DNA of 64,000 nt from Parcubacteria group bacterium M6-OD1-1 (GCA_003056085.1 LSNK01000001.1:152729-216728); one strand, 5' to 3'; positions 1 to 21,613 are shown, numbered from the stretch's first letter. The notes: a model not told the origin generated them from the sequence alone. Numbers and translations: made by a program.

Positions 1-470
1 GTCTAAAAAGACAGTTAAATTATTGCTTTTATAATCCTGACCTTTAAGAAAAACCTTAATTTTTCACGGTTATCATATTCAATCTAAGAGTCTCCCGGTA
101 ATACTCATAACCGTGAAAGATTGTGGTAATCCTTGTCGAGCAAAGCGTTAAGCATACAACTTACCAATAATTTCAGTAACTTGCTAAACGCTTATCTCTG
201 TCTCAGCACAACGTCAAGCGCATGCGGGGACAACTTCCATTCTTTGCTTAAAAAATGGTCAGATGTCAGTTCGTAATAAAGAATACATCTTCAACATTTG
301 AAATGATAACTATTTTTATATGAATTGATTTTTAAATAACTAACTGCCTTATTTATAAGTATATACGAAAAGTATAAGTTTGGCAATGAGACTTTATCCA
401 CAGAAGATTATAAACATATTAGAATAAACTTATGAATTATTTAATTCTGGTTGTTATTGGAGGATTGAGT

Positions 471-500
471 AAAAGGTGTAAAAGGTGTCAGGTACCTTTT
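471..500. repeat. AAAAGGTGT half-site plus AAAAGGTGTCAGGTACCTTTT palindromic repeat (copy 1)
   Basis: Exact motif shared with copies at 6180-6262, 6509-6530, 8688-8708, 8743-8766 and 10035-10070. Contains the AGGTACCT palindrome and a 7-bp stem followed by a T-run. Confidence 0.7.
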
Positions 501-825
501 ACTTTATTAAATAATAATACAGTTGCACTCAACTGTAACTTTATATGCTCATCCTGTGTCACTTTTTTGCTAAAATAAGGGTGTTCCCGATTTGTTTAAA
601 TTCTTTGATTTGATTACAAATCGCAATCCTCTGGAGGGCTCTAAGTGAGTCGAATATTTAATATAAAATGGCTTGAAAAAGCCTTACCCAAACCTACCCC
701 ACCACGGTTCTAGCACGAGGTGAGCTACCAATTCGAGCGTAGTATTTGCGCTCTAAGTGGGTTGAAAAAAATTCTTATTATGTTATAAAGATACCATAGC
801 TTTTCAAAAACATAGGAGACTACTA

Positions 826-1614
826 ATGAATCAACTGATTGAATTTAAAAATAAGTTTGGCAACACTCTAAGAGGAATTTTGTCAGTAGCCGATAATAAT
901 GAAATTATTTTCTGTATTCATGGTTTTGAAAGAACTTCCACAACGGAAAAAAAATTTAAAGTTGTGGCAGATGCACTTTTAAAAAGTAATACTTCTTCTT
1001 TTAGATTTGATTTTACAGGGACAGGATTATCTGATGGTAACTTTAGCCATACAACAGTTTCAAGTATGACAAATGATTTAAAGCAGGCCTTAAATACAAT
1101 AAATGTAAAAGGAAAGAAAATAAGCGTTATTACTCATAGTCTTGGGGCATGCATAATAGCAAAATTCATTCAAGATAATCCCGACTTTAAATTTAAATCT
1201 ATTGTGTTAATATCTCCTGCTTTAAACCAAAAAGAATTGTTACGTTTATGGTTTGTTGCTTCAAAAATGAAAAAAGAAAATCCAGATCTTAAAATAACTT
1301 GGGAAAACTATAAAGATTATCTTAATGAAGATGATTTTCTTTCTGACTGTGAACGACAAGATAAAATGACTAAATCAAACTATATATCAGCAGGTTATTT
1401 TCTAGAAAATAAAGATATAGACTACTCTGATACTTTATCTAACATGCCAAATATTCTGCATGTGCATGGAGATTCGGATGATAAAGTGCCCTTAGAAAGC
1501 CTGTCCGCTCAATTTCAAAGTCAAATAATAATTCAAGATGGAGATCATAATCTTGAACGACCTGATATAAGAGAACAGTGGTTAGAAAAAGTTATTAACT
1601 TTATAGTAAGTTAA
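826..1614 (+). CDS. alpha/beta-fold serine hydrolase
   Basis: GHSLG-type nucleophile elbow (ITHSLGA). Later HG and D motifs are typical of alpha/beta hydrolases. Confidence 0.55.
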   Translation: MNQLIEFKNKFGNTLRGILSVADNNEIIFCIHGFERTSTTEKKFKVVADALLKSNTSSFRFDFTGTGLSDGNFSHTTVSSMTNDLKQALNTINVKGKKISVITHSLGACIIAKFIQDNPDFKFKSIVLISPALNQKELLRLWFVASKMKKENPDLKITWENYKDYLNEDDFLSDCERQDKMTKSNYISAGYFLENKDIDYSDTLSNMPNILHVHGDSDDKVPLESLSAQFQSQIIIQDGDHNLERPDIREQWLEKVINFIVS

Positions 1615-2094
1615 TCATAAGCCGTATGGTTCGTCCAACGGCTTTTTCTTTCGCCTATATACGGGGTTATTTGAAATAATAGGGTATTTTGCTAAAATTA
1701 AGAGTGCTCTATGTGGGTCGAATGTTTAATACAAAATAGCTTGAAAAAACCCGACTCGCTACGCTCCCTGAGCTGCTGTTTATTAGCCAATCACTACACC
1801 TAAAGGTACTGCGTTTTAAAACCAATCGCTCTGCTCTTGGATAAAACGGGAGTATTCTTGGACAAACAGGGAGCATTTACCACCCTACCTTACCAATTTT
1901 GTCCAAATTTTAATTTAACAACAAAACGTTCCCGATTTATTCAAATTTTTAATTTGATAATAAATCGCAATACCCTTGTGGCGCAGTCCTCTTGAGGGTT
2001 TGGGCTCTAAGCGGGTCACTCTTAACCAAAACCCACAGATTTAAATCTGTGGGTTTTGGTTTTCCTAAAAGGGTTCCTGACCCCTTATTTTCTT

Positions 2095-3678
2095 CTATAA
2101 TCTACCATGTGTCTCGAGTATTTTCTCAACCTGTTCTTGTGTAAGCGACAGCCAAGGAGAGTTATCAGGATTGGAAGCTGCGGCAGCTGGACTTTCTCCT
2201 TGATTCCACCATTTTGCTTGAAAAGGCACACCATCAAAAAGTACACGATTGCCAGCATTGTATATTACTGTTCCAGACCAATTCTGGTATGTGCCCACTG
2301 GTAATGTTGGTGGCTGAATTGGTTTTTCGCCTGGCAAAACAGGTCCAATCAATTTCCATGATGTTTCCCATAATTGTAAGACCGGATTATCTGGCAGGTC
2401 ACCTCTTGTCCACCACTTTGCCTCATAGACATTACCGCGCCATACTATTTTTGTTCCTCTCGGATATGCTCCGGTTTCTTTCCAGACTTGATATGGACTT
2501 TTTTTAGGATTATCAACTACTTGATAGTTGATCTCAGAATCTTCTACTGTTAATAATTTAGCATTTTGCATAAGGTCTCCATCAAAACCAGCGCTTAGAC
2601 TCTTTGTAAAAGCAAATTGAGGATATGATACTCCGCTACATGCATCAGAAACAACCTTTACATTAACATAGTTTTCTCCGCACGGAATATCTCTATTAGC
2701 TGACCACATTGACATTCGACCAGCGCCTTGATTATATGCAAATAGATTAAGCATCTTAGCATCCTCCAATGTAAAGATCTCTTCCAAAAAATCATTTTGA
2801 CCAATCATTGGAGTTGCACCAATTTTTTGCCATAATGAATTACTACTCAAGCTTATTCCTGCTTGTTTATATAAAACTCCCAATTGACGATGGCTCTCAA
2901 TCAATGCTATTTTTGATGCCTCAAACATTGAATCTTCTTGGTCGCGGCTGGCACCATAATCCATAGTCATTACATTAACTCCGGATAAGTCAACTCCACT
3001 CGATAACATCTGAGTTATAACATCCGTACCTTCCTTCGTCATACCTTGCGGAGACACTGGTAACGTCAGCCAGATAGATAGATCTTCTTCGTTATCTCGA
3101 TAGTACTTTTGTAGCTGTGCAATGACATCCGCACGGCGCTTAGACGCATCAATGTCTACTAATCCCTGATTTTCAAGATCTAAATCTATCGTATTGATAT
3201 TATAATGTTCTATAACAGACTTGTAAGCATCAAATAATTCTTTTTCATCGGTACATTTAAGAGCAAGTTCAGAATTTAGCGCACCACCAAAAGAAATTGC
3301 TATTCTACCTCCCTGTTGTTGAAGTCTAGCAATTCTACGATCAAGATCGAGAGATACTGCCGCCTCACTCATTGTATAATATCCTCCCCAAGTAGGAATA
3401 CAGGGATCCATTGCATCAGAGACAATGAAAGAAAGAATAACATCAGATTTTGTATTTAATCCTAATTTTTCAAATGCGTAAGTAGGTGTGGATGTTACGT
3501 CTACGTATGCAGCAAACCATGGACCATATTCAGCCCTAGATTTATTCTCCTGCCACCCCTCAAAACTAAGAGACACACCATAAATAAGGCCAATAAAAAT
3601 AACAATAACATACACTAATCTTAGGAGAGAGAGTCGTCTTTTTGGTTCGCTATTTATTTGTGTGCCAGAATTTTTCAT
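2095..3678 (-). CDS. GH18 chitinase-like glycoside hydrolase with two C-terminal CBM5/12 chitin-binding modules and an N-terminal membrane anchor
   Basis: DxDxE catalytic motif (TIDLDLEN) and the MxYD motif (MTMDYG) of GH18. Two AKWW(T/N)(R/Q)G repeats typical of CBM5/12. Hydrophobic N-terminus. GC visibly higher than surrounding genes. Confidence 0.7.
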   Translation of the reverse strand: MKNSGTQINSEPKRRLSLLRLVYVIVIFIGLIYGVSLSFEGWQENKSRAEYGPWFAAYVDVTSTPTYAFEKLGLNTKSDVILSFIVSDAMDPCIPTWGGYYTMSEAAVSLDLDRRIARLQQQGGRIAISFGGALNSELALKCTDEKELFDAYKSVIEHYNINTIDLDLENQGLVDIDASKRRADVIAQLQKYYRDNEEDLSIWLTLPVSPQGMTKEGTDVITQMLSSGVDLSGVNVMTMDYGASRDQEDSMFEASKIALIESHRQLGVLYKQAGISLSSNSLWQKIGATPMIGQNDFLEEIFTLEDAKMLNLFAYNQGAGRMSMWSANRDIPCGENYVNVKVVSDACSGVSYPQFAFTKSLSAGFDGDLMQNAKLLTVEDSEINYQVVDNPKKSPYQVWKETGAYPRGTKIVWRGNVYEAKWWTRGDLPDNPVLQLWETSWKLIGPVLPGEKPIQPPTLPVGTYQNWSGTVIYNAGNRVLFDGVPFQAKWWNQGESPAAAASNPDNSPWLSLTQEQVEKILETHGRL

Positions 3679-3684
3679 ATTGTA

Positions 3685-5913
3685 TTAGCTATTTCTATTT
3701 ACTAATATTTTTCTCCATTTTAATTTTGGTATAATTTTGATTAATTTATGTAATAACTCTTCCTGAGGAATCTCTACATAAAGCATATCCTTAAAAGCAA
3801 GCCAAATATCAACGATTAAATTTTTAAATCCAATATATGCAACAATTGCCCATAAAGCAGCAAAAGCATTAAATCCAGCAAATGCTGCATTACCCCAATT
3901 TTCACCTTCAATGTTCCGCCACAATGTGAAAATTGAAAAGCTAACAATAAGTATTGGTGCTATTAAATACGGCCATGCCGTAGCTGTTCTATTTTTAATC
4001 TTAGGGGTTCTGGCAAATGGTATTTTTTTGGTTGTTATTGCTTGCTGTAAAGACTTAAGCGTTCCTGCAATATTTACTGGAAGCAATATCAGATTAAAAC
4101 CATAAATACGCATGATGTCACTATATTTATAACGACAGTATTTTAAATCCATAGACATGGCTAAAAAATAAGGTGCCGCAGCAAGTAGTACAAGCGGACT
4201 TAATAATCGTCCATCGTATGGATATGCTAAAAGAAATATCAAACCAATATTTGACCATGCTATTGATGACATATAATTGGCTCTAATCAAAAATTCAAGC
4301 TTCGACAATGGTCTGCCTTCGTGTTTTAGTTTATTAAATAATTTCAATAATTTTGGAAAAATTAGCAATCCCCCATTTGCCCAGCGCTGACGCTGCACAA
4401 CTAAAGATCCGAAATCAGATGGTGTTGCACTATAACTCAAACGCTCTGGATAGTTAACTAATCTCCAGTCATGAAGTGCTAAATCAATGCTTGATTCGGT
4501 GTCTTCTATAACCGTATGATCTTGCACATATCTTTTTATTTCAAACCCACCAATCCATTCTTTTTCAACAATATCCTCAAGAGCATTTTTTCGTATGACA
4601 GCATTAGCTCCAACCCAAAAAGCCGCATTGTAATAACTCATTCCCTGATGAATAATGTGTTGGATATCAGTCGTGGCACCAGACAATCTCTCAAGGCGAG
4701 ATGGAGCCCCTCTAAATGAAGAATACGGTGTTTGTACAACAGCAACATCAGCATTGTTAGGCTGTTGTAAAAAATAGACCAAACGCAAGCAATATTCTCG
4801 TAGTAATATAGAATCAGCATCTAATGTAAGTATAAAATCACTATCCCTAACGATTAGGTCAGTACTCTTTTTATCTTTAGTCGGCATTAAAATAGTCCCT
4901 TCAAGCGACTGTTCTTTTCTATATGTACCTCCCATGAGTCCGATATATGAATTGAGATTCATTGCCTTGTTTAATTCATGAGACAAAGAAATATACCTTT
5001 TTCGTTCAAATAGTTCTATCTTTACACCAAATATCCATACAAGCCTATTATATAGTTGTTCTATACGAGTCTTAGAAAATTGAGTACCTTGCTTTTGCGA
5101 GACTATCAGTTCTTCCCCTGTTTTTTGTAGGTCTTTGGCTAGTTCACGTAAAATTTGATCTGCAAAAAACACATCAACGTGATCATCAATGACCTCTTTC
5201 TCTGCTAAGCTTTCCAGCCACTGGGCTGCCCACATATACTGCTCAGATACTTTTAAAACAGCATTTCCTACAGATTTTCTATCTTTAAAATTACTCCCTT
5301 TAAACTGGGTCAGTATTTTATTAAAACGTTTATATGGTTCAGCTAAAAGAGCTTCTATCTCACTGCTTAATGCATGCGTCTCTTCGATTCTATCTCTATC
5401 TTCTGGACGAACCTTAAAAGGATCGTCATCGAGCAACAGGACTACACGAATATCCGGATATTCTTGAAGCGCTGCGGATAGTAATGTTTTTCGAATAACC
5501 TGAACTTCTTCACTATATGAGGGAACTAAAACAGTTATTGATGGTTGGTGGGTATAAAAATGTTCATCAAGTAAACGTTGAGGAGTACGAATATGCTTTT
5601 TAAAACGTTGTAAGGCGCCTTGTCGTGCAATCAAATACACTAATGCAGATAGGGTTAAAAAAGATACAATAACAGAATAGCCAAAAACTTCCACCGTAAA
5701 TTGATAATTTTGGGGACCATCAATAAGTTGGCGAATAATCACCGAAGTGATATACATCAACCAAAATAGTATTGTTAGTACAATTGCTATCCTACTAAAA
5801 GCTATTGCAAAATCCGAGGGCTTTTCATGAAGGATAGATAACACAGGCATCTCTTTTTCAGAACCCCATTGTCTTTTATAAAAATCCTGCTTGTTACGAT
5901 ATTTTTTATTCAC
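3685..5913 (-). CDS. processive family-2 glycosyltransferase (cellulose/chitin/PNAG-synthase-like)
   Basis: DAD (LTLDADS) and QRQRW (Q-x-x-R-W) motifs. Multiple N- and C-terminal hydrophobic segments. Only 6 bp from the GH18 gene. Confidence 0.7.
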   Translation of the reverse strand: MNKKYRNKQDFYKRQWGSEKEMPVLSILHEKPSDFAIAFSRIAIVLTILFWLMYITSVIIRQLIDGPQNYQFTVEVFGYSVIVSFLTLSALVYLIARQGALQRFKKHIRTPQRLLDEHFYTHQPSITVLVPSYSEEVQVIRKTLLSAALQEYPDIRVVLLLDDDPFKVRPEDRDRIEETHALSSEIEALLAEPYKRFNKILTQFKGSNFKDRKSVGNAVLKVSEQYMWAAQWLESLAEKEVIDDHVDVFFADQILRELAKDLQKTGEELIVSQKQGTQFSKTRIEQLYNRLVWIFGVKIELFERKRYISLSHELNKAMNLNSYIGLMGGTYRKEQSLEGTILMPTKDKKSTDLIVRDSDFILTLDADSILLREYCLRLVYFLQQPNNADVAVVQTPYSSFRGAPSRLERLSGATTDIQHIIHQGMSYYNAAFWVGANAVIRKNALEDIVEKEWIGGFEIKRYVQDHTVIEDTESSIDLALHDWRLVNYPERLSYSATPSDFGSLVVQRQRWANGGLLIFPKLLKLFNKLKHEGRPLSKLEFLIRANYMSSIAWSNIGLIFLLAYPYDGRLLSPLVLLAAAPYFLAMSMDLKYCRYKYSDIMRIYGFNLILLPVNIAGTLKSLQQAITTKKIPFARTPKIKNRTATAWPYLIAPILIVSFSIFTLWRNIEGENWGNAAFAGFNAFAALWAIVAYIGFKNLIVDIWLAFKDMLYVEIPQEELLHKLIKIIPKLKWRKILVNRNS

Positions 5914-6020
5914 AATTTTTTATATTATAGTTGTTATATTCTTTTAATTGAGAAATTTTACTCAACAATCATATATATAACATTATTGCGTTCATAAAAT
6001 AACAAAAAAATGATATTTTG

Positions 6021-6180
6021 TCAAGGTTTATAGCATTGCAGCGTCAAGTTTACACTTGCCTTCTCTTCTAATTTTTCAATAGGAGTCATGCCATCCATAC
6101 CCAATCCTCTATGCTTCTTTTGGTAGTTGTAGTAATGAAGAAATAAATTAAGTTTGTATTGCATTTCATCTAAAGAAGAA
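6021..6180 (-). pseudogene. C-terminal fragment of a DDE (rve-type) transposase, truncated at a repeat copy
   Basis: Minus-strand translation gives LDEMQYKLNLFLHYYNYQKKHRGLGMDGMTPIEKLEE, the typical C-terminal tail of IS3/IS481-like integrase cores. The upstream part is missing. Confidence 0.4.
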
Positions 6181-6262
6181 AAAGGTGTCAGAAGAAAAAG
6201 GTGTCAGGTACCTTTTATTTTATTAAATAAAATACAAGTAAAAAGGTGTCAGGTACCTTTTT
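6180..6262. repeat. three tandem copies or half-copies of the AAAAGGTGTCAGGTACCTTTT repeat
   Basis: aaaaggtgtcag, then aaaaaggtgtcaggtacctttt, then aaaaggtgtcaggtacctttttt. The 3' flank (attttattaaataa-aatac) is also conserved with copy 1. Confidence 0.7.
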
Positions 6263-6280
6263 TCCCTCTTTCTATGCCCC

Positions 6281-6574
6281 ATGCATATTGGGAAAGATTT
6301 TTTCAACGACTTGATAGCTTTTATGACATCTGGACCATCTGAACTCTTCATACTTCGTAGAAAAAATGGTAAAGACACTCTACGTGGTAAGTTTGACACA
6401 AATATAAGGTGTAATGCGGTGCATTCACTAAATAGTGAAGAAAATTGGGTAAATAGAATAATTGATAAATTTAAGTTGGATATAACTACAAAGAAAGAGG
6501 AAGACCTAAAAAAGGTACCTGACACCTTTTCTTTACCTCTGGCAATGTTTCAAGTAGAAACACTTGCGAGATGA
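6281..6574 (+). CDS. hypothetical small protein between inverted repeat copies
   Basis: 97-aa ORF only, with no recognisable motif. Bounded by inverted copies of the 21-bp repeat. Confidence 0.25.
   Translation: MHIGKDFFNDLIAFMTSGPSELFILRRKNGKDTLRGKFDTNIRCNAVHSLNSEENWVNRIIDKFKLDITTKKEEDLKKVPDTFSLPLAMFQVETLAR
6509..6530. repeat. inverted copy of the AAAAGGTGTCAGGTACCTTTT repeat
   Basis: aaaaaggtacctgacacctttt is the reverse complement of the motif. Together with 6240-6262 it brackets the small ORF 6281-6574. Confidence 0.65.
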
Positions 6575-6709
6575 AACAAGTAGTCGCACCTACACGAGCA
6601 AGTACTAAGATTTTATCATAAAAATACAAAAAGAAAAAAGCCCCCGCACCAAAAAATTGGAGCGGAGGCTCAAGGTTTCAAGAGGAACAAGTCCTCAAGA
6701 GTTCAAGGT

Positions 6710-7501
6710 TCAGATTTTCCGAGCAGACGAAATGCCGAGCCCACTGCTACGGCCGCCATCCCAGCTGCCGTCGACATCGAGACCACCCCCACCGAAACCA
6801 CCGACGTAGATGTGGAACCCTTCCGCATCAACAGACGAAGTCCTGACATAGAACCCCTGAAGCAAGTAAGTACCACGAATCTTGAAGTAGGCGGTGACAG
6901 CATAGCTGACTTCGGAGGTGTTCGGAACGTGCTCAACCTCGGTGATGAGGTCTTTTTGTTCCTTCCACGTCTTACTGAACGAGTTAGGATAGCCTTCCTT
7001 ACGGATAGCGAGCCACTGTCCAGCTTTGACCATATCGGTCTTGGCGAACTTTTGGCTGTCGTTGGTGTACCACCCTTCGGTCTTCGAGTAGAAGAGTTGG
7101 TTTTCAAGCTCACGAACCTCGAGGAGGTTCATCTCCGTCTGTGGTCCTGCCAAGAGTATATACCCGTGACTATGGAACCACTGAAGGGTTTTCTCATCGG
7201 GAAGAGTTTCAGCGAGATGTTTGAGTTGGTTCTCACTGTAGCTGAAGCCGTAAGCTCCTGCCACTTCCTCGGGTGAGATGAAATCATCACCCAAAATGAG
7301 ATTGGCGAGTTCATATCCTTTCGGAGCATCATCACCACGTGCGATGGAAATCGCACGTACCATTCTTCCCTTGTTTTCAATTAACTCCTGAAGAAAATCA
7401 GGGGTTCCACCTTGTCTGCCGAACTCGGCAACGAACTCGTAGGCTTGACCGAGCGAAAAATCACTCGGCTTGCTGTGAGCTACACGATTTGCTGTTTTCA
7501 T
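6710..7501 (-). CDS. hypothetical protein of foreign (very high GC) composition
   Basis: 263-aa ORF with GC far above its flanks. Overlapping ORFs on other frames are typical artefacts of high GC. Gly-rich C-terminus (GGFGGGGLDVDGSWDGG). Confidence 0.5.
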   Translation of the reverse strand: MKTANRVAHSKPSDFSLGQAYEFVAEFGRQGGTPDFLQELIENKGRMVRAISIARGDDAPKGYELANLILGDDFISPEEVAGAYGFSYSENQLKHLAETLPDEKTLQWFHSHGYILLAGPQTEMNLLEVRELENQLFYSKTEGWYTNDSQKFAKTDMVKAGQWLAIRKEGYPNSFSKTWKEQKDLITEVEHVPNTSEVSYAVTAYFKIRGTYLLQGFYVRTSSVDAEGFHIYVGGFGGGGLDVDGSWDGGRSSGLGISSARKI

Positions 7502-7912
7502 CGCAGTACTCCTTTTATGCCAAGTTCGCTTTGACTATTGCGGTCTGTCTCGATATGAGATAAACATTATATATACCAGTGATTTGATATACAGAATGCT
7601 TATCTCATACAAGTTTTGAACCTTTTTATTACTGTAAAAGAACTATAAACACAGTATAACACTTTATATTATATATGTCAATAGTTCGCTATTTTCTGTT
7701 CCATATGAGCATTTATGTTGAGATTTGCTTTAATGGGCTAAAACAAGCATTTCTTCAAGGTTTTGAATTGAACTCTTGATATAATCTCTCTGTGAAACAA
7801 GTTCTGAAAGCCAAGCAGAGGGGCTACCAATTTGAGCGTAGTTATTATGCACAAGGTACGTTGTAGACAACTCACTATATAAAAAATCAATCATCTGCGG
7901 TAAGATTAAAAC

Positions 7913-8326
7913 ATGAAACCAATATATCTACAATTTAACTGCAAGGAATCTAATGAGCTGGACATGCGTCAAGCTGATGCAATTTTAAAGTATAAGCCTG
8001 ATATCATAATTCTTGAGTATCCGAACAACAACAAAACTCCTAACCTGCCTCTTAATAAATATTCCGCTTTAAAAAAGCCAAAAAACTTAGTAAAAAAACG
8101 CCTCAAAAAGTTTTCTGATAAAGTTTTAAAAATTCATCCCTGGGCTGAAGCAGACACTATAATGTGGAAGAATGTTGCGAGCCTTTGGGAAAAAGATCAT
8201 CAAGTTTTAATATATTCAGTAGATGCCCCAAACGAGCTGACAGAAGAACTGCGAGAAGTATGGAACTATACATATCCATGTATTAAAAAAAAATTGGATA
8301 TGGTGGGTAAGAATATACTTGCGTGA
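7913..8326 (+). CDS. hypothetical protein
   Basis: ORF only. Abuts the next ORF by an 8-bp overlap. Confidence 0.35.
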   Translation: MKPIYLQFNCKESNELDMRQADAILKYKPDIIILEYPNNNKTPNLPLNKYSALKKPKNLVKKRLKKFSDKVLKIHPWAEADTIMWKNVASLWEKDHQVLIYSVDAPNELTEELREVWNYTYPCIKKKLDMVGKNILA

Positions 8327-8579
8327 GAAGATTATGGCAAAAAACATTCAATGGATATTAGACAACTACAAAGAAAAGAAAGAGCCTAAAGTTTTAGTAT
8401 TTTTACAAAGCTTTCATTGGGATCATGTAAAATTTTTACTAAACAATCCATCTAAAAATAAGATATGGAACTACTATTTCGGAAATTTTTCTGAAATAGA
8501 CAAACAAAGCATCGGAAACAAAATAAAAAATATAAACAAGGTATTTTATAAATATTGGAGTAAAATATCTGATTTTTAA
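8319..8579 (+). CDS. hypothetical protein (probable true start at ATG 8334)
   Basis: ORF only, with overlap and possible coupling to the previous ORF. Confidence 0.3.
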   Translation: MREKIMAKNIQWILDNYKEKKEPKVLVFLQSFHWDHVKFLLNNPSKNKIWNYYFGNFSEIDKQSIGNKIKNINKVFYKYWSKISDF

Positions 8580-8687
8580 TATACAGTAAACTTTTTGGAT
8601 TCAGCTTAAGGATGAATCCTCCACCAAACGCTCCAAATACACCATTTGGAGCGTTTGGTGCATTATAAGAGAGAAAGGTGGAGAAAT

Positions 8688-8766
8688 GTGTCAGGTACCT
8701 TTTATTTTATTAGAGTAAGAAAAGATATCATGAAAAAGGTAGCAGGTATCTTTTTTCCTAAGAATT
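8688..8766. repeat. two degenerate copies of the AAAAGGTGTCAGGTACCTTTT repeat
   Basis: gtgtcaggtaccttttatttt at 8688-8708 and aaaaaggtagcaggtatctttttt at 8743-8766. Confidence 0.55.
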
Positions 8767-8831
8767 TAATAAATAGCCAGCTCATTTCGTAGTGAAAATA
8801 ATAGAGCAAAACCAAAGAAATCCTTTCCTTT

Positions 8832-9878
8832 TTAATTAAAATAATTATTTACAGCGTCTTCAAATTGCTCGATAAATATTTTTTTAAAATAAAAAATATT
8901 ATTTATCTCATAGAATAATAAGCTTGCCTTTTTGTATTCCCCAACATCTACAATCCTATAAGAAAATGGTATTGAATTATGTGCTAATAAAATAGCATTT
9001 GAAAGCATACGAGCTGTTCTTTTATTTCCATCCTCAAAAGCCTGAATATATGAAATTAAAATTAACCCAAGAAAAGCTTTTTCAAAAAATAATTCTTTTT
9101 TATTTATTAGGTCAATCATTCTTTCTAAGACTTCCTTAAGTTGAAATAAATTATCCAATGGCTTATATTTTGTAGCAGTAATACCCACCGCATTATTCCT
9201 AATATTTTTTGTAATATTAAGTTTTTTGGTTAAAACAGAATGAATATATTCAATATCAGAATAATTTAATTTTTTAAATCTCTCTTTGTTTAAAATAGAC
9301 TCATTAAAAGCATCTTTATGATTAAGAATCATTTGAGTCTCTTTTTCCGTTTTTCCTTTCCCAACAATATTTTCCTTAATCAAAGCTTCCGTACTTAAAA
9401 GTGAGTAAGTATTTCCCTCTATGACTGAAGATTTCCAAGAAAATTCAATCATTATTCTTTCAAATTCTTTATTTATAAGAGTTTGACTATCATATTCAGA
9501 AAAATTTTTTATAAACTCCCTTTGTAATTTTTCAATTTTTGCCTTTTCTTCTTTAGTGAAAATATCACCTTCCAAAATATTAAAAATTTCAAAATTAAAA
9601 CTTTTTTTTACTTCTCTTTCTGTGTATGGAATAGAAAAATATTTTTTAGCATCAATTTTATTTATAATTTCATAATTTTCAGACAAAGAGTAGATTACGC
9701 CTCTTCCTAATCCTTTTTTAAAAATTAAAAACTTTTCTTCTAGTTCTTTTAAATCTCTTTGTAGTGTTTTTCTATCAATATCCACACTCAAAAAAGACAG
9801 AATATCAGACACCGATACTTCTGTCCTTTTCTTTATAAAAGTAATAATTTTATCTTGTCTTTTTTGCTTTTTATTCAT
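8832..9878 (-). CDS. Fic/DOC-family protein with N-terminal winged-helix domain and a degenerate Fic motif (QAFEDGNKRTAR)
   Basis: The core motif aligns to HPFx(D/E)GNGRxxR. His is replaced by Gln and the second Gly by Lys. Basic N-terminal HTH-like region. Confidence 0.6.
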   Translation of the reverse strand: MNKKQKRQDKIITFIKKRTEVSVSDILSFLSVDIDRKTLQRDLKELEEKFLIFKKGLGRGVIYSLSENYEIINKIDAKKYFSIPYTEREVKKSFNFEIFNILEGDIFTKEEKAKIEKLQREFIKNFSEYDSQTLINKEFERIMIEFSWKSSVIEGNTYSLLSTEALIKENIVGKGKTEKETQMILNHKDAFNESILNKERFKKLNYSDIEYIHSVLTKKLNITKNIRNNAVGITATKYKPLDNLFQLKEVLERMIDLINKKELFFEKAFLGLILISYIQAFEDGNKRTARMLSNAILLAHNSIPFSYRIVDVGEYKKASLLFYEINNIFYFKKIFIEQFEDAVNNYFN

Positions 9879-9896
9879 ATATAAACAATATAATTA

Positions 9897-10002
9897 ATTG
9901 CGACATTTTACAATACTAATTGCGACACCTTTAAAGTATTTATTCATAAAATCGTTATTTATAGCAGTTTTATTGCGACATTTTATAATACTAATTGCGA
10001 CA
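9897..10002. promoter_or_regulatory. four direct copies of ATTGCGACA (two 30-bp units) upstream of the Fic gene, a candidate operator
   Basis: Copies at 9897-9905, 9919-9927, 9972-9980 and 9994-10002, with spacing 22/53/22 bp. They begin immediately upstream of the start codon at 9878. Confidence 0.4.
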
Positions 10003-10034
10003 TATTATAACTCCCCTTGAGAATACCTTTTCCA

Positions 10035-10070
10035 AAAAAGGTGTCAGAAAAGGTGTCAGGTACCTTTTTT
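10035..10070. repeat. half-site plus full copy of the AAAAGGTGTCAGGTACCTTTT repeat
   Basis: aaaaaaggtgtcag followed by aaaaggtgtcaggtacctttttt. Confidence 0.65.
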
Positions 10071-10107
10071 CACTCATTTATAAAAATAATATTTTTTTTC
10101 ATATAGA

Positions 10108-10365
10108 TTATTTAATATTTTTTGAAGAATTATCTGATATTTTTACTTTTAGAAAAACGAGTATTATAAATAGAATAATAAATAATAAGAAAGAAATTGC
10201 ATAATAAGGAACTGCGTGATCTAAAAGATTATATACATAAGGACAACCAGGATTATTATCGCCAGAATTAGGCATTATAACTTTTCGAACTATTAATTGC
10301 ATACCGATTAAAATACCGATATTAACCCAAAATAAAATATATATAATTTTATAAATTTTTATCAT
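10108..10365 (-). CDS. small hydrophobic membrane protein
   Basis: 85 aa with two hydrophobic stretches. 4-bp overlap with the upstream gene. Confidence 0.3.
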   Translation of the reverse strand: MIKIYKIIYILFWVNIGILIGMQLIVRKVIMPNSGDNNPGCPYVYNLLDHAVPYYAISFLLFIILFIILVFLKVKISDNSSKNIK

Positions 10366-11427: not shown

Positions 11428-12348
11428 TTAACTTTCTAAAACATTAAATCCATTAAATATGGCATCACACATAAAATCTTCCAATAAACTGGAATCTCCA
11501 CTTTGTTGAGACTTATTTAAATAATTATAATAAAATCTTTTATTTTCTTGCTTAATAACTGCTGGCGGTAAATTTCTTCTCAAAAACATCGCTACCACAA
11601 TAAGACGCCCAATTCTTCCGTTGCCATCAGAAAAAGGATGAATTTTCTCAAAATCACTATGTATTTGAGAAATATGTTTTACTACATCATCTTCTTCTTT
11701 ATTTATATTTTTTATTAGCCTTACTACTAACTCTGGGACTTTCAAATAATTAGCAGTAGGAATATTGGCTCCGACAATTCTCACCCCATGATTTCTATAA
11801 AAACCCGCATCATCTCTAATGCTATTCATTAAAATGCTATGTAATTTTAAAATTAATAATTCTGTAATTTTAAAATTTGGCTTAATCTGTTTAAATAAAA
11901 ACTGTAAAGCTGTTTGATGATTTTTAGCCTCTAATTGTTCAATTAAATTTCTGTTTTTCAAAGATATGTTCCGAAATAAAATATCTGCAGTTTCATTTTC
12001 AGTTAAAGTACTGCCTTCTATGCTGTTTGTATTGTAAGTTAAAGATAAAATAAACTGATCATAAATATCTTTACGACTGATGATTTCTTTTAATATGTTT
12101 GTGTATTTTTTTGATTTATTGTAAATAACATCTTTTTTTGCTTGTAAAATATTATCTGGAATAATTTTTTGCCCTGTGTATTTTTTATACAATTCATCAA
12201 TCAACTCCCGCCTTCTTTTGTGAGGAACTGATTTGTTATTGATCCAGCTATTTAAAGTTGCAAAAGACACCTCCAGCTCATAAGCAATTTTTTCTTGAGT
12301 TAAGCCTGAAATTTGTTTAATTAATTTTAGTTTCTCTGATGTATTCAT
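11428..12348 (-). CDS. Fic-family protein (AMPylase-type) with N-terminal XRE-like HTH
   Basis: Canonical HPFSDGNGRIGR motif. N-terminal LTQEKIAYELEVSFATLNSWINNK helix-turn-helix. Confidence 0.8.
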   Translation of the reverse strand: MNTSEKLKLIKQISGLTQEKIAYELEVSFATLNSWINNKSVPHKRRRELIDELYKKYTGQKIIPDNILQAKKDVIYNKSKKYTNILKEIISRKDIYDQFILSLTYNTNSIEGSTLTENETADILFRNISLKNRNLIEQLEAKNHQTALQFLFKQIKPNFKITELLILKLHSILMNSIRDDAGFYRNHGVRIVGANIPTANYLKVPELVVRLIKNINKEEDDVVKHISQIHSDFEKIHPFSDGNGRIGRLIVVAMFLRRNLPPAVIKQENKRFYYNYLNKSQQSGDSSLLEDFMCDAIFNGFNVLES

Positions 12349-12421: not shown

Positions 12422-12566
12422 CTCTAAGCAAAACAAAAAATCTTTCAATTTCTTGAAAGATTTTTTGTTTTATTGTTTTTCTGTCTTAAACAAATGTTAA
12501 AGCATTTCCTTTGCTGTCTCCTCTGCCTGTTCTGCCTATTCTGTGGACATAGTCGTTGTATGACTG
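12422..12566. repeat. 145-bp direct repeat, copy A: orphan 27-codon 3' end of the DEAD-box helicase gene plus terminator hairpin
   Basis: Identical to 18305-18449. Contains the hairpin aaaaaatctttcaa-tttc-ttgaaagatttttt and an out-of-context coding tail ...YNDYVHRIGRTGRGDSKGNALTFV* on the minus strand. Confidence 0.85.
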
Positions 12567-12614
12567 CGTTTTGAGTTACTTTAAATAGTTGATATTTCAT
12601 GCAAATATTATAAA

Positions 12615-13114: not shown

Positions 13115-14056
13115 TTATTTTTTATTTAATATTATATTATAATATTTTTTTTCGGTATCATTGAATATTGTTTTCATCTCTTCTATGCAAGATTCTCCAT
13201 TTAACGCACTCAGAGGTAATATCAATATATTCTCATCTATAGTATTATAACACGGTTCAAATACACTTAAAAATATATTTAATTCATATAAACGTGTTGT
13301 TATCTTTTTTAAACACTTTTCATCACTTTCATTATTATGACTACCATACCTATCTATCCTTGATTTACATTTTAATAATGTTTGATGTAGTGCATAATAT
13401 GTATTATTAAAATTATCTTCTAAGTAACAGAAATCTTTACCATAGAGAACTATATTTCTATAGTAAGCAACAGAAATCTCATGCTTCGTCGCATCTTCAT
13501 GAACTACACCAGCATAAACGGTATCATTTACAGGAAAGTTTAAACTCATGTTATCTTCTCCATATACAAAATAATTAATATATTTTGCTTCGATATTTAG
13601 ATTACTTCTTAACTCTTCAGACACCAATACATTATCTAATGAATATGAAAATTCACTACCTTTAATAACAATTCCCAGATCTATATCGTCAGGAGCATAA
13701 TCCCTATATCCATAAACATAACTGCCGTATACGTAAATGGATATTATGTCCTCAATATTAAAATTAGGACATTTACTCATAACACTCTCAATAACAGAAT
13801 TTATATTTTCTTTTAATTTTAAAATTCTTCCAATTATCAATTTATTTTGATTGCTATCAAATACCCGATAATACGGATTTCTATTTTTCAAATTATCTAT
13901 AATATCTTTTTCTGAATCAAGACAGATATTTTCATTAGAAAAAATAAATAAGGGGTATTCATATTGATACCCCTTATTTAATTTATTATTATTTTCCTTT
14001 CTTATCTCTTTGATGATCTTCTCTGCGTAATTACGAGAGGACAATAAACTCCACAT
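13115..14056 (-). CDS. nucleotidyltransferase (Pol-beta superfamily minimal NTase fold)
   Basis: YGSYVYGYRDYAPDDIDLGIV matches the hG[GS]-x9-13-D-h-[DE]-h NTase signature. 2-bp gap to the NUDIX gene and 55-bp overlap with the upstream gene. Confidence 0.55.
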   Translation of the reverse strand: MWSLLSSRNYAEKIIKEIRKENNNKLNKGYQYEYPLFIFSNENICLDSEKDIIDNLKNRNPYYRVFDSNQNKLIIGRILKLKENINSVIESVMSKCPNFNIEDIISIYVYGSYVYGYRDYAPDDIDLGIVIKGSEFSYSLDNVLVSEELRSNLNIEAKYINYFVYGEDNMSLNFPVNDTVYAGVVHEDATKHEISVAYYRNIVLYGKDFCYLEDNFNNTYYALHQTLLKCKSRIDRYGSHNNESDEKCLKKITTRLYELNIFLSVFEPCYNTIDENILILPLSALNGESCIEEMKTIFNDTEKKYYNIILNKK

Positions 14057-18304: not shown

Positions 18305-18449
18305 CTCTAAGCAAAACAAAAAATCTTTCAATTTCTTGAAAGATTTTTTGTTTTATTGTTTTTCTGTCTTAAACAAATGTTAAAGCATTTCCTTTGCTGT
18401 CTCCTCTGCCTGTTCTGCCTATTCTGTGGACATAGTCGTTGTATGACTG
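18305..18449. repeat. 145-bp direct repeat, copy B: native 3' end of the helicase gene plus terminator
   Basis: Identical to 12422-12566. Confidence 0.85.
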
Positions 18450-19622
18450 AGGTATTGTGTAGTTTATAACATGAGTGATGTCTTTAATATCAAGACCTCT
18501 TGCCGCTACGTCTGTTGCAACTAAAATATTTATTCTGCTTTGTCTGAAGTGCGTTAAAGACCTCTGTCTTTGATGCTGTCTTTTGTCTCCATGAATAGAA
18601 TCAACCTTAAATCCATTTCCTCTTAAGTTGACTGTCAGTTCTTCTACATCTTTTTTAGTTTCTGAAAAGACGAGAACTTTTTTAAACTCAGGGTCAGAAA
18701 GAATACCTTTTAATGTATCTATTTTTGAAGCGTTTTTAACTCTTACAATATCTTGGTCAACATTGTCTGCTGTTTTGCCGACTTGAACAGACACCGTAAC
18801 GGGATTACGCAAAAATTGGTCTGTTATTCTTTTAATTTGATCCGGCATTGTAGCAGAAAAGAAAAGCGTCTGTCTTTTTGAATCAGTTTTGCTTAAAATT
18901 TCTCTTATGTCATCTATAAATCCCATATCTAACATCCTGTCTATTTCATCCACCACTACATTATTAAAAGATCTCAAATTAAGAGCGCCTCTTTTTTCAA
19001 GGTCTTTTAATCTCCCTGGTGTGCCTATTATGAAATTTGGATTTCTTTTTAAATCTCTTAACTGTTTGTGTATCGGCATACCTCCTATACATGTTGTTGA
19101 GTAAAGATTCATACCGTAAGCAAAAAGCTTGAACTCGGTTTCTATTTGGGAACAAAGCTCGCGCGTTGGAGCGATAATCAAAACTTTTTCCGTGCGGCTG
19201 CCGGCTACTTTATTTATCTGAGGCAATAAAAATGCTCCTGTCTTGCCTGTTCCTGTGTTTGCAAGCCCAACAACATCTTTCCCTTCAAGTATATACGGGA
19301 TGGATTGGTCTTGTATGGGAGTTGGTTTAACAAATTTTCTTCTTTTTATATTTTCCTGTATCTTTTCAGAAAAATTAAAATCAGCAAACAAATTATTTAC
19401 TTTTATTTTCTCGCTTTTTACGCCGGAAGCCTTTTTGACAAACTTAGATATGTCTATGTTGTTTGACCTTCTTTTAAACCCTCTTCCTTTGTATCCTCCG
19501 CTTCTTTTACCGGAACGATGCTTTGAAAAGCTGCCGTACGATTTTGAGTTTGTTGATGACCTGTTTTTATTACCACCAAATCTATTACCAGACCTCTGTC
19601 TGGATTTATTATTATTATTCAT
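18369..19622 (-). CDS. DEAD-box ATP-dependent RNA helicase
   Basis: Q-motif region, GTGKT Walker A, DEID (DEAD variant), SAT and HRIGRTGR motifs. Arg/Gly-rich N-terminus. Confidence 0.85.
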   Translation of the reverse strand: MNNNNKSRQRSGNRFGGNKNRSSTNSKSYGSFSKHRSGKRSGGYKGRGFKRRSNNIDISKFVKKASGVKSEKIKVNNLFADFNFSEKIQENIKRRKFVKPTPIQDQSIPYILEGKDVVGLANTGTGKTGAFLLPQINKVAGSRTEKVLIIAPTRELCSQIETEFKLFAYGMNLYSTTCIGGMPIHKQLRDLKRNPNFIIGTPGRLKDLEKRGALNLRSFNNVVVDEIDRMLDMGFIDDIREILSKTDSKRQTLFFSATMPDQIKRITDQFLRNPVTVSVQVGKTADNVDQDIVRVKNASKIDTLKGILSDPEFKKVLVFSETKKDVEELTVNLRGNGFKVDSIHGDKRQHQRQRSLTHFRQSRINILVATDVAARGLDIKDITHVINYTIPQSYNDYVHRIGRTGRGDSKGNALTFV

Positions 19623-19955
19623 AATTTTCCTTTCCCTGTCTGTAAGTTGGTTTCAGACAGTAATTAACACTTCCTAATCCCTAAAATCTTTATTTAGAGA
19701 CTTCAATTGCTGTATAAAAAATGAAATGCTAATTACCGAATGTATCTTAAGATGAGAGGTTTTTAAGATACGCTTTAATAGATTCTCTCTTTATAGAACA
19801 ATTTTAATTAAAATTAGGACTTAAGCACTTAAGTCCTAAAAAATTATTAACTTTCAGTACCATAGCATAAACTTTAAAAAATAGCAAGGAGTTGCGCTGT
19901 GAGCTTAAAAACAATGGATTTTTTATTTTTATATTAAATATGATATACTTTTTGT

Positions 19956-20747
19956 ATGATTGAAGGTTTTATATTTGGAACATTACAGGGAATAGCAGAA
20001 TGGCTTCCGGTTAGTTCGGAGGGGGTTATTTTTTTGGTGCAGACAAACTTTTTTTCAAATTTAACTATTGAACAAACAATAAGATTTGCGCTCTTTTTGC
20101 ATTTGGGGACCGCTCTTGCCGCTTTGCTGTATTTTTGGAAAGATTTTTGGAATCTTTTGAAAACTTTTTTCAACTATAAAAATGAAACCGGTGAAAACAA
20201 GCTTGTTTTGAATTTTCTGATAATCTCCACTTTAATAAGCGGAACCTTAGGGATTTTACTGCTTAAAACCTTAATAAATATTGAGGGGGCTGTTGAACTT
20301 TCAGGGAAAACCTTAACTTTCTTGATAGGTATATTGCTTTTGTTTACCGCATACCTGCAGCTTAAGAAAAAATCTGAAACCTCCAGAAACTTAAACGACT
20401 TAAAACCATCTGACGGTATTTGGCTTGGCATAGCACAAGGTATCGCAGTGCTTCCCGGGCTCTCACGCTCAGGAATGACTGTTTCTGTACTGCTTTTGAG
20501 AAAATTTGACGATGTTTATGCCTTGAAACTGAGTTTTTTAATGAGTGTACCTATAGTGATTGCGGGAAATATAATTTTAAACATTAAAGATTTTTCTTTA
20601 TCATTGGAAAATCTAATCGGCTTTTTCTTTGCATTTTTATTTGGAATTTTAACCATCAAATTTTTGCTTGAGTTTGCAAGAAAAGTAAATTTTGGATACT
20701 TTATATTGATATTTGGAATTTTAATGATGATTTCTATCTTTTTCTAA
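19956..20747 (+). CDS. uppP: undecaprenyl-diphosphatase (UppP/BacA family)
   Basis: EWLPVSSEG and PGLSRSGMT motifs. Polytopic membrane protein. The His of the usual SS(T/S)GH motif is replaced (SSEGV). Confidence 0.75.
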   Translation: MIEGFIFGTLQGIAEWLPVSSEGVIFLVQTNFFSNLTIEQTIRFALFLHLGTALAALLYFWKDFWNLLKTFFNYKNETGENKLVLNFLIISTLISGTLGILLLKTLINIEGAVELSGKTLTFLIGILLLFTAYLQLKKKSETSRNLNDLKPSDGIWLGIAQGIAVLPGLSRSGMTVSVLLLRKFDDVYALKLSFLMSVPIVIAGNIILNIKDFSLSLENLIGFFFAFLFGILTIKFLLEFARKVNFGYFILIFGILMMISIFF

Positions 20748-21501: not shown

Positions 21502-21518
21502 GCTTTCAGGCTCTTAAG

Positions 21519-21547: not shown

Positions 21548-21613
21548 TTTCTGAGATTAATCAAAAAGGATGTTTTTCTTGATTCTTTATTTTTTATTCG
21601 TTATTCTTACCTT

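Follow-up and report, generated by a model that had tools for sequence, protein, structure and literature searches.

A native GT2 synthase-GH18 chitinase gene pair of Parcubacteria belongs to a widespread module that probably makes a chitin-like glycan

We analysed a stretch of 64,000 nucleotides from Parcubacteria group bacterium M6-OD1-1 (GCA_003056085.1, LSNK01000001.1:152729-216728), hereafter called the window, with all coordinates counted from its first letter. Two adjacent genes of the window encode a processive, membrane-integrated synthase of glycosyltransferase family 2 (GT2) and a membrane-anchored chitinase of glycoside hydrolase family 18 (GH18) with two carbohydrate-binding modules (CBM) of the CBM5/12 type. 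The pair is native and not a recently imported island, and it represents a widespread, strongly conserved module of the Candidate Phyla Radiation (CPR) and several Gram-positive (monoderm) groups. In our judgement it is rather probable that the two genes form a native operon of an uncharacterised monoderm module, which extrudes and trims a chitin-like beta-glycan containing N-acetylglucosamine (GlcNAc), and that the repeats in the flanks did not serve as its delivery vehicle. An earlier sequence-only reading had proposed a synthase/hydrolase pair for a chitin-like or other beta-linked exopolysaccharide, located on a higher-GC island that was brought in by a now-decayed integrative element. The functional part of that proposal holds as the best available inference, whereas the evolutionary history it suggested does not.

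Organisation of the locus

The two genes are both encoded on the minus strand, with the GT2 gene upstream, and the spacing of 6 bp noticed in the sequence-only reading was confirmed by our open reading frame (ORF) calls. The features of the transcription unit are as follows:

3685..5913, minus strand: processive membrane-integrated GT2 synthase, 742 aa, GTG start (ORF call, Pfam, motifs, structure model)
2095..3678, minus strand: GH18 chitinase, membrane-anchored, with two C-terminal CBM5/12 modules, 527 aa (ORF call, profiles, structure model)
5996..6024, minus strand: promoter-like sequence (TTGACA, 17 nt, TG-TATTTT) some 85 nt ahead of the start codon of GT2 (consensus match only)
2026..2059, minus strand: strong hairpin CCCACAGAUUU/AAAUCUGUGGG, then the U-tract UUUUGGUU (folding)

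The hairpin is located about 35 nt past the GH18 stop codon. Folding of the segment 2005-2100 gave a minimum free energy of -39.4 kcal/mol (z = -6.6), and none of 200 shuffled sequences was equally stable, so the hairpin is likely an intrinsic terminator closing the two-gene operon. The number of promoter-like sites in the region was not above the shuffled expectation. With a predicted promoter upstream and a terminator-like hairpin downstream, the pair looks like a self-contained operon. Rfam searches, carried out with gathering thresholds on the whole window and with E-value thresholds on positions 1-10200, indicated nothing credible in or around the locus.

The GT2 synthase

The upstream protein was matched by the Pfam model Glyco_trans_2_3 (3.6e-34, 118.7 bits, cut-off 27) and contains the motifs DDD (residues 161-163), NKAMNLN (315-321), DAD (365-367), IED (469-471), QRQRW (507-511) and the gating-loop-like FARTPK (633-638). 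When aligned to Rhodobacter BcsA, its motifs corresponded to DDG, DAD, TED and QRGRW of BcsA, and DDD, DAD, IED and QRQRW were invariant in 25 aligned homologues (mean column identity of the alignment, 70%). The AlphaFold model (predicted local distance difference test score, pLDDT, 71.5; predicted TM-score, pTM, 0.71) has a GT-A domain preceded by two helices and followed by about six; no PilZ domain was found by Pfam search. Motifs, helix layout and the predicted fold place the protein in the membrane-integrated processive GT2 class, which includes BcsA, CesA, hyaluronan synthase and chitin synthase, in agreement with the earlier description of a GT2 enzyme with DAD and QRQRW motifs and a multi-transmembrane architecture.

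The GT-A domain of the model includes an additional element:

5029..5406, minus strand: insertion of four helices specific to this family, located in the GT-A domain between DDD and NKAMNLN (residues about 170-295; model)

The helices of the insertion span residues 170-206, 212-240, 245-274 and 281-295, with a local pLDDT of about 85-96. The insertion is kept in all aligned GT2 homologues, and the BcsA alignment leaves residues of about 166-357 unmatched. A Foldseek search with the model returned CesA8, BcsA and hyaluronan synthases with a probability of 1.00 and E-values from 1e-11 to 1e-8, the best fold neighbours being plant CesA (8g2j, 8vht) and bacterial BcsA, followed by hyaluronan synthases.

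The GH18 chitinase

The downstream protein is composed of four segments:

3541..3627, minus strand: N-terminal signal-anchor helix, residues about 18-46 (model helix 18-46; hydropathy)
2590..3519, minus strand: GH18 catalytic (beta/alpha)8 domain, residues about 54-363 (sequence and fold matches)
2344..2490, minus strand: CBM5/12 module 1, AKWWTRG (Pfam and homologues)
2158..2283, minus strand: CBM5/12 module 2, AKWWNQG, residues 466-507 (Pfam and homologues)

The Pfam score of the GH18 domain, 29.6 bits, was exactly at the cut-off. In a phmmer search the best solved match was the domain of Streptomyces venezuelae Chitinase 1 (9buf; 1.7e-49, 34% identity), and the chitinase of Pyrococcus furiosus was detected at 9e-24. 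The catalytic motifs are D165-L-D167-L-E169 (DLDLE) and MTMDYG (M237-T-M-D240-Y; the MxYD motif), and DxDxE is kept in all GH18 homologues tallied (n = 82; the eight commonest variants were listed, covering 75). In the structure model (pLDDT 68.1) strands and helices alternate eight times; its target-normalised TM-score to 9buf is 0.89, and the top 50 matches of the fold search were all chitinases. The domain is of the endo type, without the alpha+beta insertion domain.

The anchor helix reaches a Kyte-Doolittle 19-mer score of 2.46 at residue 21, and an equivalent N-terminal anchor is present in 79 of the 82 GH18 homologues. The Pfam model CBM_5_12 scored 45.2 bits (cut-off 26.2) over two stretches, the AKWW sequence is kept in both modules across homologues, and the matches of these modules are chitin-binding modules throughout. 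Thus the protein belongs with the GH18 chitinases and its binding modules with CBM5/12, from which chitin hydrolysis is predicted; the Pfam results, the 9buf match, the motifs and the model all support the earlier annotation of a GH18 enzyme with DxDxE and MxYD motifs, two AKWW modules and an N-terminal anchor.

Distribution and co-evolution of the two genes

To examine how general the pairing is, one genome per GTDB species was scanned, which yielded at least 565 synthase loci; pairing and taxonomic spread were read from the best 80. Both proteins have thousands of homologues, the best of them 60-79% identical, and the named ones come from Kaiserbacteria, Moranbacteria, Parcubacteria and other Patescibacteria. 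Among the best 80 loci, the synthases of Parcubacteria and Moranbacteria are 64-77% identical to the window protein, those of Microgenomates, WWE3, Dojkabacteria and Saccharibacteria 59-65%, and those of Actinomycetota (Leifsonia, Curtobacterium, Cryobacterium, Arthrobacter and others) 55-63%; one Ktedonobacteria and one Paenisporosarcina genome were also included. A full-length GH18/CBM5 homologue adjoins the synthase gene in 80 of these 80 species-representative genomes. In CPR, Microbacteriaceae, Ktedonobacteria and Paenisporosarcina the GH18 gene follows the synthase gene on the same strand; it lies upstream in divergent orientation in Arthrobacter, Glaciibacter, one Cryobacterium and a Pseudonocardiales metagenome-assembled genome (MAG). 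The two genes also adjoin each other at L005, L093 and L094, where 5-7 bp separate them, and in more distant relatives that are 48% and 40% identical.

The pairwise distances of the GT2 and GH18 proteins are correlated (r = 0.83), and the two genes co-evolve. No conserved third gene was found at 81 loci, where only antisense shadow ORFs, genus-level synteny and generic families (ParA, ABC ATPase, HtrA) recurred; likewise, in other genomes no further gene of the window was located less than 10 kb from the module. The GC content of the module tracks that of the host, from 0.32 to 0.73. In a neighbour-joining tree, the window protein grouped with Parcubacteria-like sequences, Saccharibacteria and Actinomycetota each formed clades, genera were monophyletic, and the tree broadly followed taxonomy. 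In one direct comparison, with the copy at L009, the GT2 protein was 75% identical and ClpB 49%.

The module is also present on 13 mobilizable plasmids of Lactococcus lactis/cremoris, for example beside prtP/prsA on pG323 (L097, NZ_AP024213.1), and on the 245-kb Arthrobacter plasmid pNicSoilB8 (L098), where its neighbourhood includes transposases, a further GH18 gene and a GGDEF gene. In the Lactococcus plasmid copies, the start of the annotated "chitinase" appears to have been called too short. A scan of 2.9 million viral contigs returned no relatives. At L089 (4134-7208, protein P0359) a 48%-identical synthase relative is fused to a C-terminal EAL domain (cyclic di-GMP phosphodiesterase) and followed by two GH18 paralogues. 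The EAL fusion in this one relative and the GGDEF gene near the Arthrobacter plasmid copy hint at the usual company of exopolysaccharide synthases.

Since metagenomic surveys count CPR GH18 genes as chitin-degrading potential (e.g. PMC9530719), the adjacency might be taken as incidental, the GH18 protein being a nutritional chitinase and the GT2 protein an unrelated glycosyltransferase. We find this scarcely credible in view of the adjacency in all of the best 80 loci, across at least four phyla, the correlated evolutionary rates, the gap of 5-7 bp in close relatives and the occurrence of a membrane anchor, instead of secretion, in nearly all GH18 homologues. Furthermore, a Moranbacteria genome encodes chitinases but lacks GlcNAc catabolic genes (PMC9530719).

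The product of the module

The donor sugar was sought from the motifs, profile scores and fold ranking of the synthase, and the outcome leaned towards a cellulose-synthase-like enzyme. Because neither the sequence nor the fold of the synthase settles the sugar, the product must be read from the partner. A 2-acetamido sugar is required for the substrate-assisted catalysis of GH18 enzymes, and in known synthase-dependent systems the hydrolase encoded in the operon is specific for the product (BcsZ, PgaB, PslG, AlgL). Together with the kinship to chitinases, the chitin-type CBMs and the conservation of the catalytic motif and the anchor, the GH18 chemistry favours a chitin-like polymer. The Moranbacteria genome that has chitinases but cannot be seen to use GlcNAc (PMC9530719), and the pairing of one 35%-identical synthase relative with a deacetylase, are further hints towards GlcNAc.

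We propose that the synthase would polymerise a beta-1,4-linked, GlcNAc-containing glycan from a UDP-sugar on the cytoplasmic face of the membrane and that the chain would be extruded via its own transmembrane channel. The GH18 partner, tethered beside the channel by its signal anchor, would face outward; its CBM5/12 modules may bind the emerging chain, while the catalytic domain may cleave or remodel it (release, length control or transglycosylation). One GH18/CBM5 protein would in this way merge the roles that BcsB and BcsZ play in cellulose systems. Two genes could suffice because monoderm lineages have no outer membrane to cross.

Several observations weigh against this proposal. The sugar is probably GlcNAc as judged from the partner only, the synthase itself being cellulose-synthase-like: among solved structures, the sequence search with GT2 detected bacterial cellulose synthases (BcsA) only; the motifs FWVGANAV and IEDTE and the FARTPK gating loop resemble those of UDP-glucose enzymes; and chitin synthases were remote fold matches (E about 1e-4, TM-score 0.22-0.29). 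The protein is nowhere near any of the curated equivalog thresholds (CelA, PgaC, NodC, MdoH). It scored 91.9 and 46.5 bits against the NCBIfam BcsA models TIGR03030 (cut-off 699.1) and NF008558 (cut-off 992), 48.9 bits against the PgaC/IcaA model TIGR03937 (cut-off 422.3), 20.2 bits against the NodC model TIGR04242 (cut-off 550) and 18.7 bits against Pfam Chitin_synth_2 (cut-off 27). The failed Chitin_synth_2 and NodC thresholds exclude a membership based on homology, not chitin as the product. The confidence of both structure models is no more than moderate (pLDDT 71.5 for GT2 and 68.1 for GH18), and the coupling of chitinase and synthase is seen at the level of the genes, a physical contact of the two proteins being putative. 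In addition, a carbohydrate esterase of family 4 (CE4), which would point to an N-acetylated product, was found as a partner only once: one 35%-identical synthase relative is paired with a CE4 deacetylase instead of GH18, and none was found in the flanks of other module loci. A CE4 deacetylase was therefore rejected as a general partner.

The leaning of the synthase gives weight to a serious rival, which we nevertheless regard as unlikely, namely that the enzyme makes cellulose or another beta-glucan from UDP-glucose, while the GH18/CBM5 protein remodels peptidoglycan (GlcNAc-N-acetylmuramic acid) for passage of the polymer or anchors it. The sequence and fold of GT2 are closest to BcsA and CesA, the module is limited to wall-rich monoderms, and a eukaryote-type glycogen synthase is encoded in the window, so UDP-glucose may be available. 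Moreover, some GH18 enzymes, such as hevamine, act as lysozymes, and CslA of Streptomyces has helpers that act on the wall. However, the GH18 domain falls firmly among true chitinases, all matches of the CBMs are chitin-binding, known systems pair the synthase with a product-specific hydrolase, and the distant synthase relative is paired with CE4, which acts on N-acetylated sugars.

An endo-type GH18 domain without the alpha+beta insertion domain, tethered beside the synthase, could also cut the chain into short chitooligosaccharides of defined length for signalling or host interaction, by analogy with NodC. The strict coupling of the two genes and the lack of an anchoring or export partner would be in line with such a role, as would the host-attached life of CPR bacteria. 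Nonetheless, no NodA- or NodB-like modification genes were found around the module, the two CBM5/12 modules fit binding of an insoluble or crystalline polymer, the similarity to NodC is negligible (20 bits, cut-off 550), and the module also occurs in free-living Actinomycetota and dairy Lactococcus, which makes this explanation quite improbable.

Thus the chitin-like extruded polymer remains our preferred reading. A stronger version of it, that true chitin or a polymer closely related to beta-1,4-GlcNAc is produced by CPR and several Gram-positive lineages (Microbacteriaceae, Micrococcaceae, some Bacillota including dairy Lactococcus plasmids, and Ktedonobacteria) via a cellulose-synthase-like enzyme unrelated to eukaryotic chitin synthases, invariably with a tethered GH18 partner that acts on the nascent chain, is offered tentatively, as a possibility that we think somewhat more apt to fail than to hold.

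A further polysaccharide cluster was noticed at L093, the locus of a 77-79%-identical relative, 6 kb downstream of the module (18426-22241). It encodes a UDP-glucose/GDP-mannose dehydrogenase, a 438-aa GT2 protein and a heparinase II/III-CE4 fusion; the 438-aa protein matches Pfam models of the chitin-synthase and hyaluronan-synthase type, and the cluster looks hyaluronan- or heparosan-like.

Comparison with known systems

The module resembles the Bcs system (BcsA, BcsB and the GH8 enzyme BcsZ) in having a processive GT2 synthase with D, DxD, ED and QxxRW motifs and a gating loop of the FxVTxK type, in a predicted passage of the polymer through the enzyme's own channel, and in an operon-encoded extracytoplasmic glycoside hydrolase and a membrane-anchored partner with carbohydrate-binding domains. 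It differs from Bcs in the lack of PilZ, BcsB and BcsC (Pfam; 81 loci), in a GT-domain insertion of about 125 aa, which is unmatched in the BcsA alignment, and in its hydrolase, which is of family GH18 with N-acetyl-dependent chemistry instead of GH8. Plant CesA is the best overall fold match and also has two transmembrane helices before the GT domain; its plant-conserved region is a helical insertion in the GT domain at a place comparable to that of the module's insertion. However, the identity to CesA is only 12-13%, and the module synthase has no zinc-finger N-terminus and no class-specific region and is encoded in a bacterial operon with GH18.

Systems for poly-N-acetylglucosamine (PNAG), i.e. 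PgaCD/PgaB and staphylococcal IcaAD/IcaB, are likewise built on a GT2 synthase, which uses UDP-GlcNAc, and the N-acetylated product is the substrate of their partner enzymes (a CE4 deacetylase and a GH153 hydrolase), Ica being a minimal monoderm system. The QRxRWAxGG motif is similar between PNAG synthases and the module GT2. Unlike these systems, the core module includes no PgaD, IcaD or CE4, and its partner is a beta-1,4-specific enzyme of the chitinase type, whereas the PNAG partner is a beta-1,6 enzyme. The tip glycan system CslA-GlxA-CslZ-LpmP of Streptomyces provides a monoderm cellulose-synthase-like GT2 with dedicated extracellular glycan-active helpers; compared by description, that system relies on a GH6 enzyme, a copper oxidase and a lytic polysaccharide monooxygenase of family AA10, in contrast to GH18/CBM5 here.

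The hydrolase resembles S. venezuelae Chitinase 1 (9buf) and P. furiosus chitinase AD2 (2dsk), with identities of 34% and 27%, target-normalised TM-scores of 0.89 and 0.80, and the same catalytic motifs in all three; but 9buf and 2dsk are secreted nutritional chitinases, whereas the module GH18 protein is membrane-anchored and its gene is tied to that of a synthase.

Chitin synthases (eukaryotic and viral CHS, NodC, proteobacterial CHS) are processive GT2 enzymes making beta-1,4-GlcNAc chains, and those of fungi work with chitinases; however, the module GT2 is below the Chitin_synth_2 and NodC cut-offs and its fold likeness to them is weak. CHS genes have been transferred into Proteobacteria (Goncalves et al. 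2016, PMC5122149); these are eukaryote-derived division-1 enzymes, found in other operons (epimerase, DUF1501) and other taxa than the GT2-GH18 module. The identification of the module synthase with these "bacterial chitin synthases" was rejected, since they form a different, eukaryote-derived family.

The module works like a synthase-dependent exopolysaccharide machine, nearest to Bcs in its type of enzyme and nearest to Ica/Pga in its minimalism and possibly in its sugar. A literature search over about 8 million full texts returned no description of the GT2-GH18 module and no report of a GH18/CBM5 partner for such synthase systems.

Composition and origin of the pair

The window is heterogeneous in composition, with an average GC content of 32.9%. 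The two genes have GC contents of 0.353 and 0.391, compared to a gene mean of 0.329 (standard deviation 0.047; 54 ORFs), but their GC at third codon positions (GC3), 0.253 and 0.269, does not depart from the mean of 0.263 (z = -0.15 and +0.09; 54 ORFs), and in codon-usage distance from the rest of the window they rank 52nd and 53rd of 54, i.e. near the most typical. The surplus GC resides at the first two codon positions, a pattern shared by ThiC (0.379), IlvC (0.408) and ClpB (0.389), and thus reflects amino-acid composition. The right flank (6001-8000), with a GC content of 0.40-0.41, is above that of the pair, and the first 10 kb of the window form a mosaic from 0.24 to 0.51. The "higher-GC island" of the sequence-only reading was therefore not recovered. 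A more general lesson is that in an AT-rich genome a modest GC surplus can stem from amino-acid constraint and not from foreign origin.

Four further assemblies from this population contain the pair with an identical nucleotide sequence, and all relatives retrieved have it as well; close relatives carry it among housekeeping genes with a 5-7 bp gap and an integrase-free neighbourhood. The closest homologues (64-79%) belong to CPR/Parcubacteria, and the synteny of the pair was found in every genome examined. The window itself has the other genes of an ordinary CPR chromosome: ValS, ClpB, ThiC, IlvC, a VanW/peptidoglycan-binding protein, a glycogen cluster, RNase P RNA and LOOT RNA.

On the other hand, some observations are consistent with a recent horizontal acquisition, in which the insertion sequence (IS) fragment and the repeats would be the remains of a decayed integrative element. 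Repeats and the IS481 fragment flank the pair, a strain variant (L001) diverges 11 nt past the GH18 stop codon, the first 10 kb are a GC mosaic, Lactococcus and Arthrobacter carry the module on plasmids, and the identity between phyla is unusually high. Such an acquisition appears very improbable to us, for GC3 and codon usage are the genome's own, the surplus GC being at positions 1 and 2; the nearest homologues are of the same lineage; the relatives hold the pair with the same spacing among housekeeping genes without integrases; and the hairpins of the repetitive extragenic palindromic (REP) type described below are spread across the first 10 kb, beyond the edges of the pair. Furthermore, neither an intact integrase nor a pair of attachment (att) sites delimiting the synthase-chitinase pair was found, only the 47-aa IS481 remnant.

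A native and purely monoderm module is nonetheless challenged by three points. Identities between phyla are flat at 57-66%, which, with the plasmid copies, speaks for past horizontal moves; transfer of the module within CPR is possible; and a few MAGs labelled as Bdellovibrionales or Gammaproteobacteria carry the module, in conflict with its restriction to monoderms. These labels are doubtful because the sequences cluster inside CPR clades, with GC contents of 0.38-0.51. The flat identities and the plasmid copies point to old transfers between phyla followed by long residence, not to recent arrival.

Mobile DNA and repeats in the flanks

Decayed mobile DNA does occur at the right edge of the pair, in what is a recombination-prone mosaic. 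Mobile DNA at the edges, as proposed in the sequence-only reading, is thus real as regards the IS481 remnant and the repeats, but not as a vehicle, as nothing ties the pair to it as cargo. The gene remnants and the left-flank repeats are:

6021..6164, minus strand: C-terminal remnant of an IS481-family transposase, 47 aa (NCBIfam E 4.9e-4, profile positions 256-283 of 284)
6284..6367, plus strand: fragment of nucleoside-diphosphate kinase (ndk), matching only positions 51-78 of the 135 in the Pfam NDK profile (31.5 bits; cut-off 27)
6710..7501, minus strand: GC-rich CPR-specific protein, 263 aa, orphaned homologue of diversity-generating-retroelement targets (GC 0.51, GC3 0.56)
1806..2011, no strand: left-flank repeats (1806-1857 copies 43336-43387 at 96%; 1911-2011 is a dispersed repeat)

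The DDE-transposase fragment reported earlier corresponds to the first of these, a real but weak match of the IS481 type (E 4.9e-4). The ndk region (6281-6574, plus strand) appears to be a remnant trapped between inverted 21-mers at 6241 and 6510. The only true compositional outlier nearby is the ORF at 6710-7501, with a codon distance of 2.07; its family is restricted to CPR and comprises about 116 proteins, many on contigs of 1-3 kb. Homologues at L095 (6001-8724) and L096 have bAvd and a reverse transcriptase downstream, and the location of 17 of 23 mismatches between variable and template repeats at template adenines marks these homologues as targets of diversity-generating retroelements. 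No template repeat or reverse transcriptase for this ORF was found within the 64-kb window, and searches of PHROGs and PADLOC with it and with the small flanking ORFs returned nothing.

On the left side, the dispersed repeat 1911-2011 is related to a segment at about 583-627 and is also present in L001 at 5515-5615, and the 1806-1857 repeat is shared with the tRNA-Leu locus, so the sharing of left-edge repeats with the 575-775 region and the tRNA-Leu locus, noted in the sequence-only reading, was borne out. The tRNA-Leu gene (43457-43541, minus strand) is adjoined by a second, 5'-truncated tRNA-Leu-like copy within 43293-43390, with the common 3' end at 43304-43326. It is the anticodon-arm region of this truncated copy that is duplicated at 1806-1857 (96%), and the two may be att-like remnants or dispersed tRNA-derived repeats. 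A 41.5-kb element bounded by the tRNA-Leu-like fragments (1806-1857 and 43336-43387) was considered implausible, as the interval holds ClpB, ValS, ThiC and IlvC.

The 21-bp repeat copies reported at the right edge were found again and extended. The 21-mer AAAAGGTGTCAGGTACCTTTT forms a hairpin with a 7-bp stem and a 7-nt loop and has seven copies in the window at up to three mismatches, compared to 0.01 expected, all in the first 10.1 kb, in addition to a degenerate eighth:

480-500 and 10048-10068: exact copies
6196-6216 and 6241-6261, plus strand: two exact copies, with a partial tandem duplication before them
6510..6530, minus strand: exact inverted copy, which with the 6241 copy brackets the ndk fragment
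8683-8703 and 8734-8754: degenerate copies
2071..2084, minus strand: degenerate eighth copy of the hairpin, GGGGTCAGGAACCC, 11 nt past the GH18 stop codon

At least 120 unrelated metagenome contigs, with GC contents of 0.29-0.73, contain the exact 21-mer; its flanks there are not conserved, and many copies form inverted pairs 20-65 nt apart. A gene or fragment of an IS200-like Y1 transposase (PF01797, 2e-15) abuts the 21-mer in 16 of 120 loci, and at L206 the gene lies between inverted copies. The adjacent Y1 transposase genes and the inverted pairs resembling REPINs indicate that the 21-mers are REP/REPIN-type hairpins of an element like the REP-associated tyrosine transposases (RAYT). No RAYT gene was found within the 64-kb window. 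An integron attC-like site, a DNA-uptake signal and a sequencing artefact were rejected in favour of REP/RAYT on the same grounds. Exact conservation of a REP over such diverse genomes (L099-L218) is unusual for REP/RAYT systems.

In L001, another assembly of the same population, the GT2 and GH18 genes are 100% nucleotide-identical and the flank differs. L001 departs from the window exactly at the 2071-2084 copy and has a 16-nt indel at 6192-6207, inside the 6196 copy; the difference may reflect either a true rearrangement or an assembly that is chimeric at the repeat. In place of the alpha/beta hydrolase gene of the window (1-2084), L001 (4311-8177) has, directly downstream of the pair, genes for NUDIX, L-PSP, ThsB-TIR (Thoeris-like) and S24 peptidase proteins.

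Other features of the window

Two Fic-domain genes and a nucleotidyltransferase-like gene (8832-9878, 11428-12348 and 13115-14056, all minus strand) have GC contents of 0.24-0.28; one of the Fic genes resembles the SoFic/PDC-S04 defence models, and this low-GC stretch beside the mosaic looks accessory or defence-like. A 162-nt direct repeat with a perfect palindrome inside (12422-12583 and 18305-18466; 95% identical, 5.9 kb apart) brackets ThiC and IlvC. Near tRNA-Leu, palindromic 60-nt repeats, direct and inverted, at 43703-43762 and 44377-44436 surround a 183-aa low-GC ORF (43826-44377), which may be a small mobile unit. The glycogen cluster (45563-50544, minus strand), with a eukaryote-type glycogen synthase (PF05693, 5e-167), GH57 and amylo-alpha-1,6-glucosidase, is notable for CPR. 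Class A RNase P RNA lies at 57626-58065 (plus strand), and LOOT RNA at 63867-63990 (minus strand) scored 65 bits, above its gathering score.

Significance

The interest of the finding rests on the breadth of the module, its conservation in CPR and its testability, and not on this window itself. The genomes of CPR/Patescibacteria are very small and encode few biosynthetic pathways, and yet these bacteria keep a 3.8-kb module at 60-79% identity. In the one direct comparison made, it is conserved at least as well as ClpB, and it is probably central to the envelope or to host attachment. As the module is found on Lactococcus lactis plasmids and in cultivable Arthrobacter, Curtobacterium and Leifsonia, the question of chitin can be addressed in tractable organisms, and the module would offer a minimal two-protein synthase-plus-processing system for study. 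If our reading is true, the counts of GH18 genes in CPR would need to be reinterpreted, as these "chitinases" would mostly be biosynthetic accessories and not a sign of chitin-degrading potential. The module would then account for an overlooked surface polymer of CPR cells, and if this polymer is chitin-like, bacteria would join fungi and animals as producers of chitin through an independent enzyme lineage, that is, by an independent bacterial origin of chitin synthesis.

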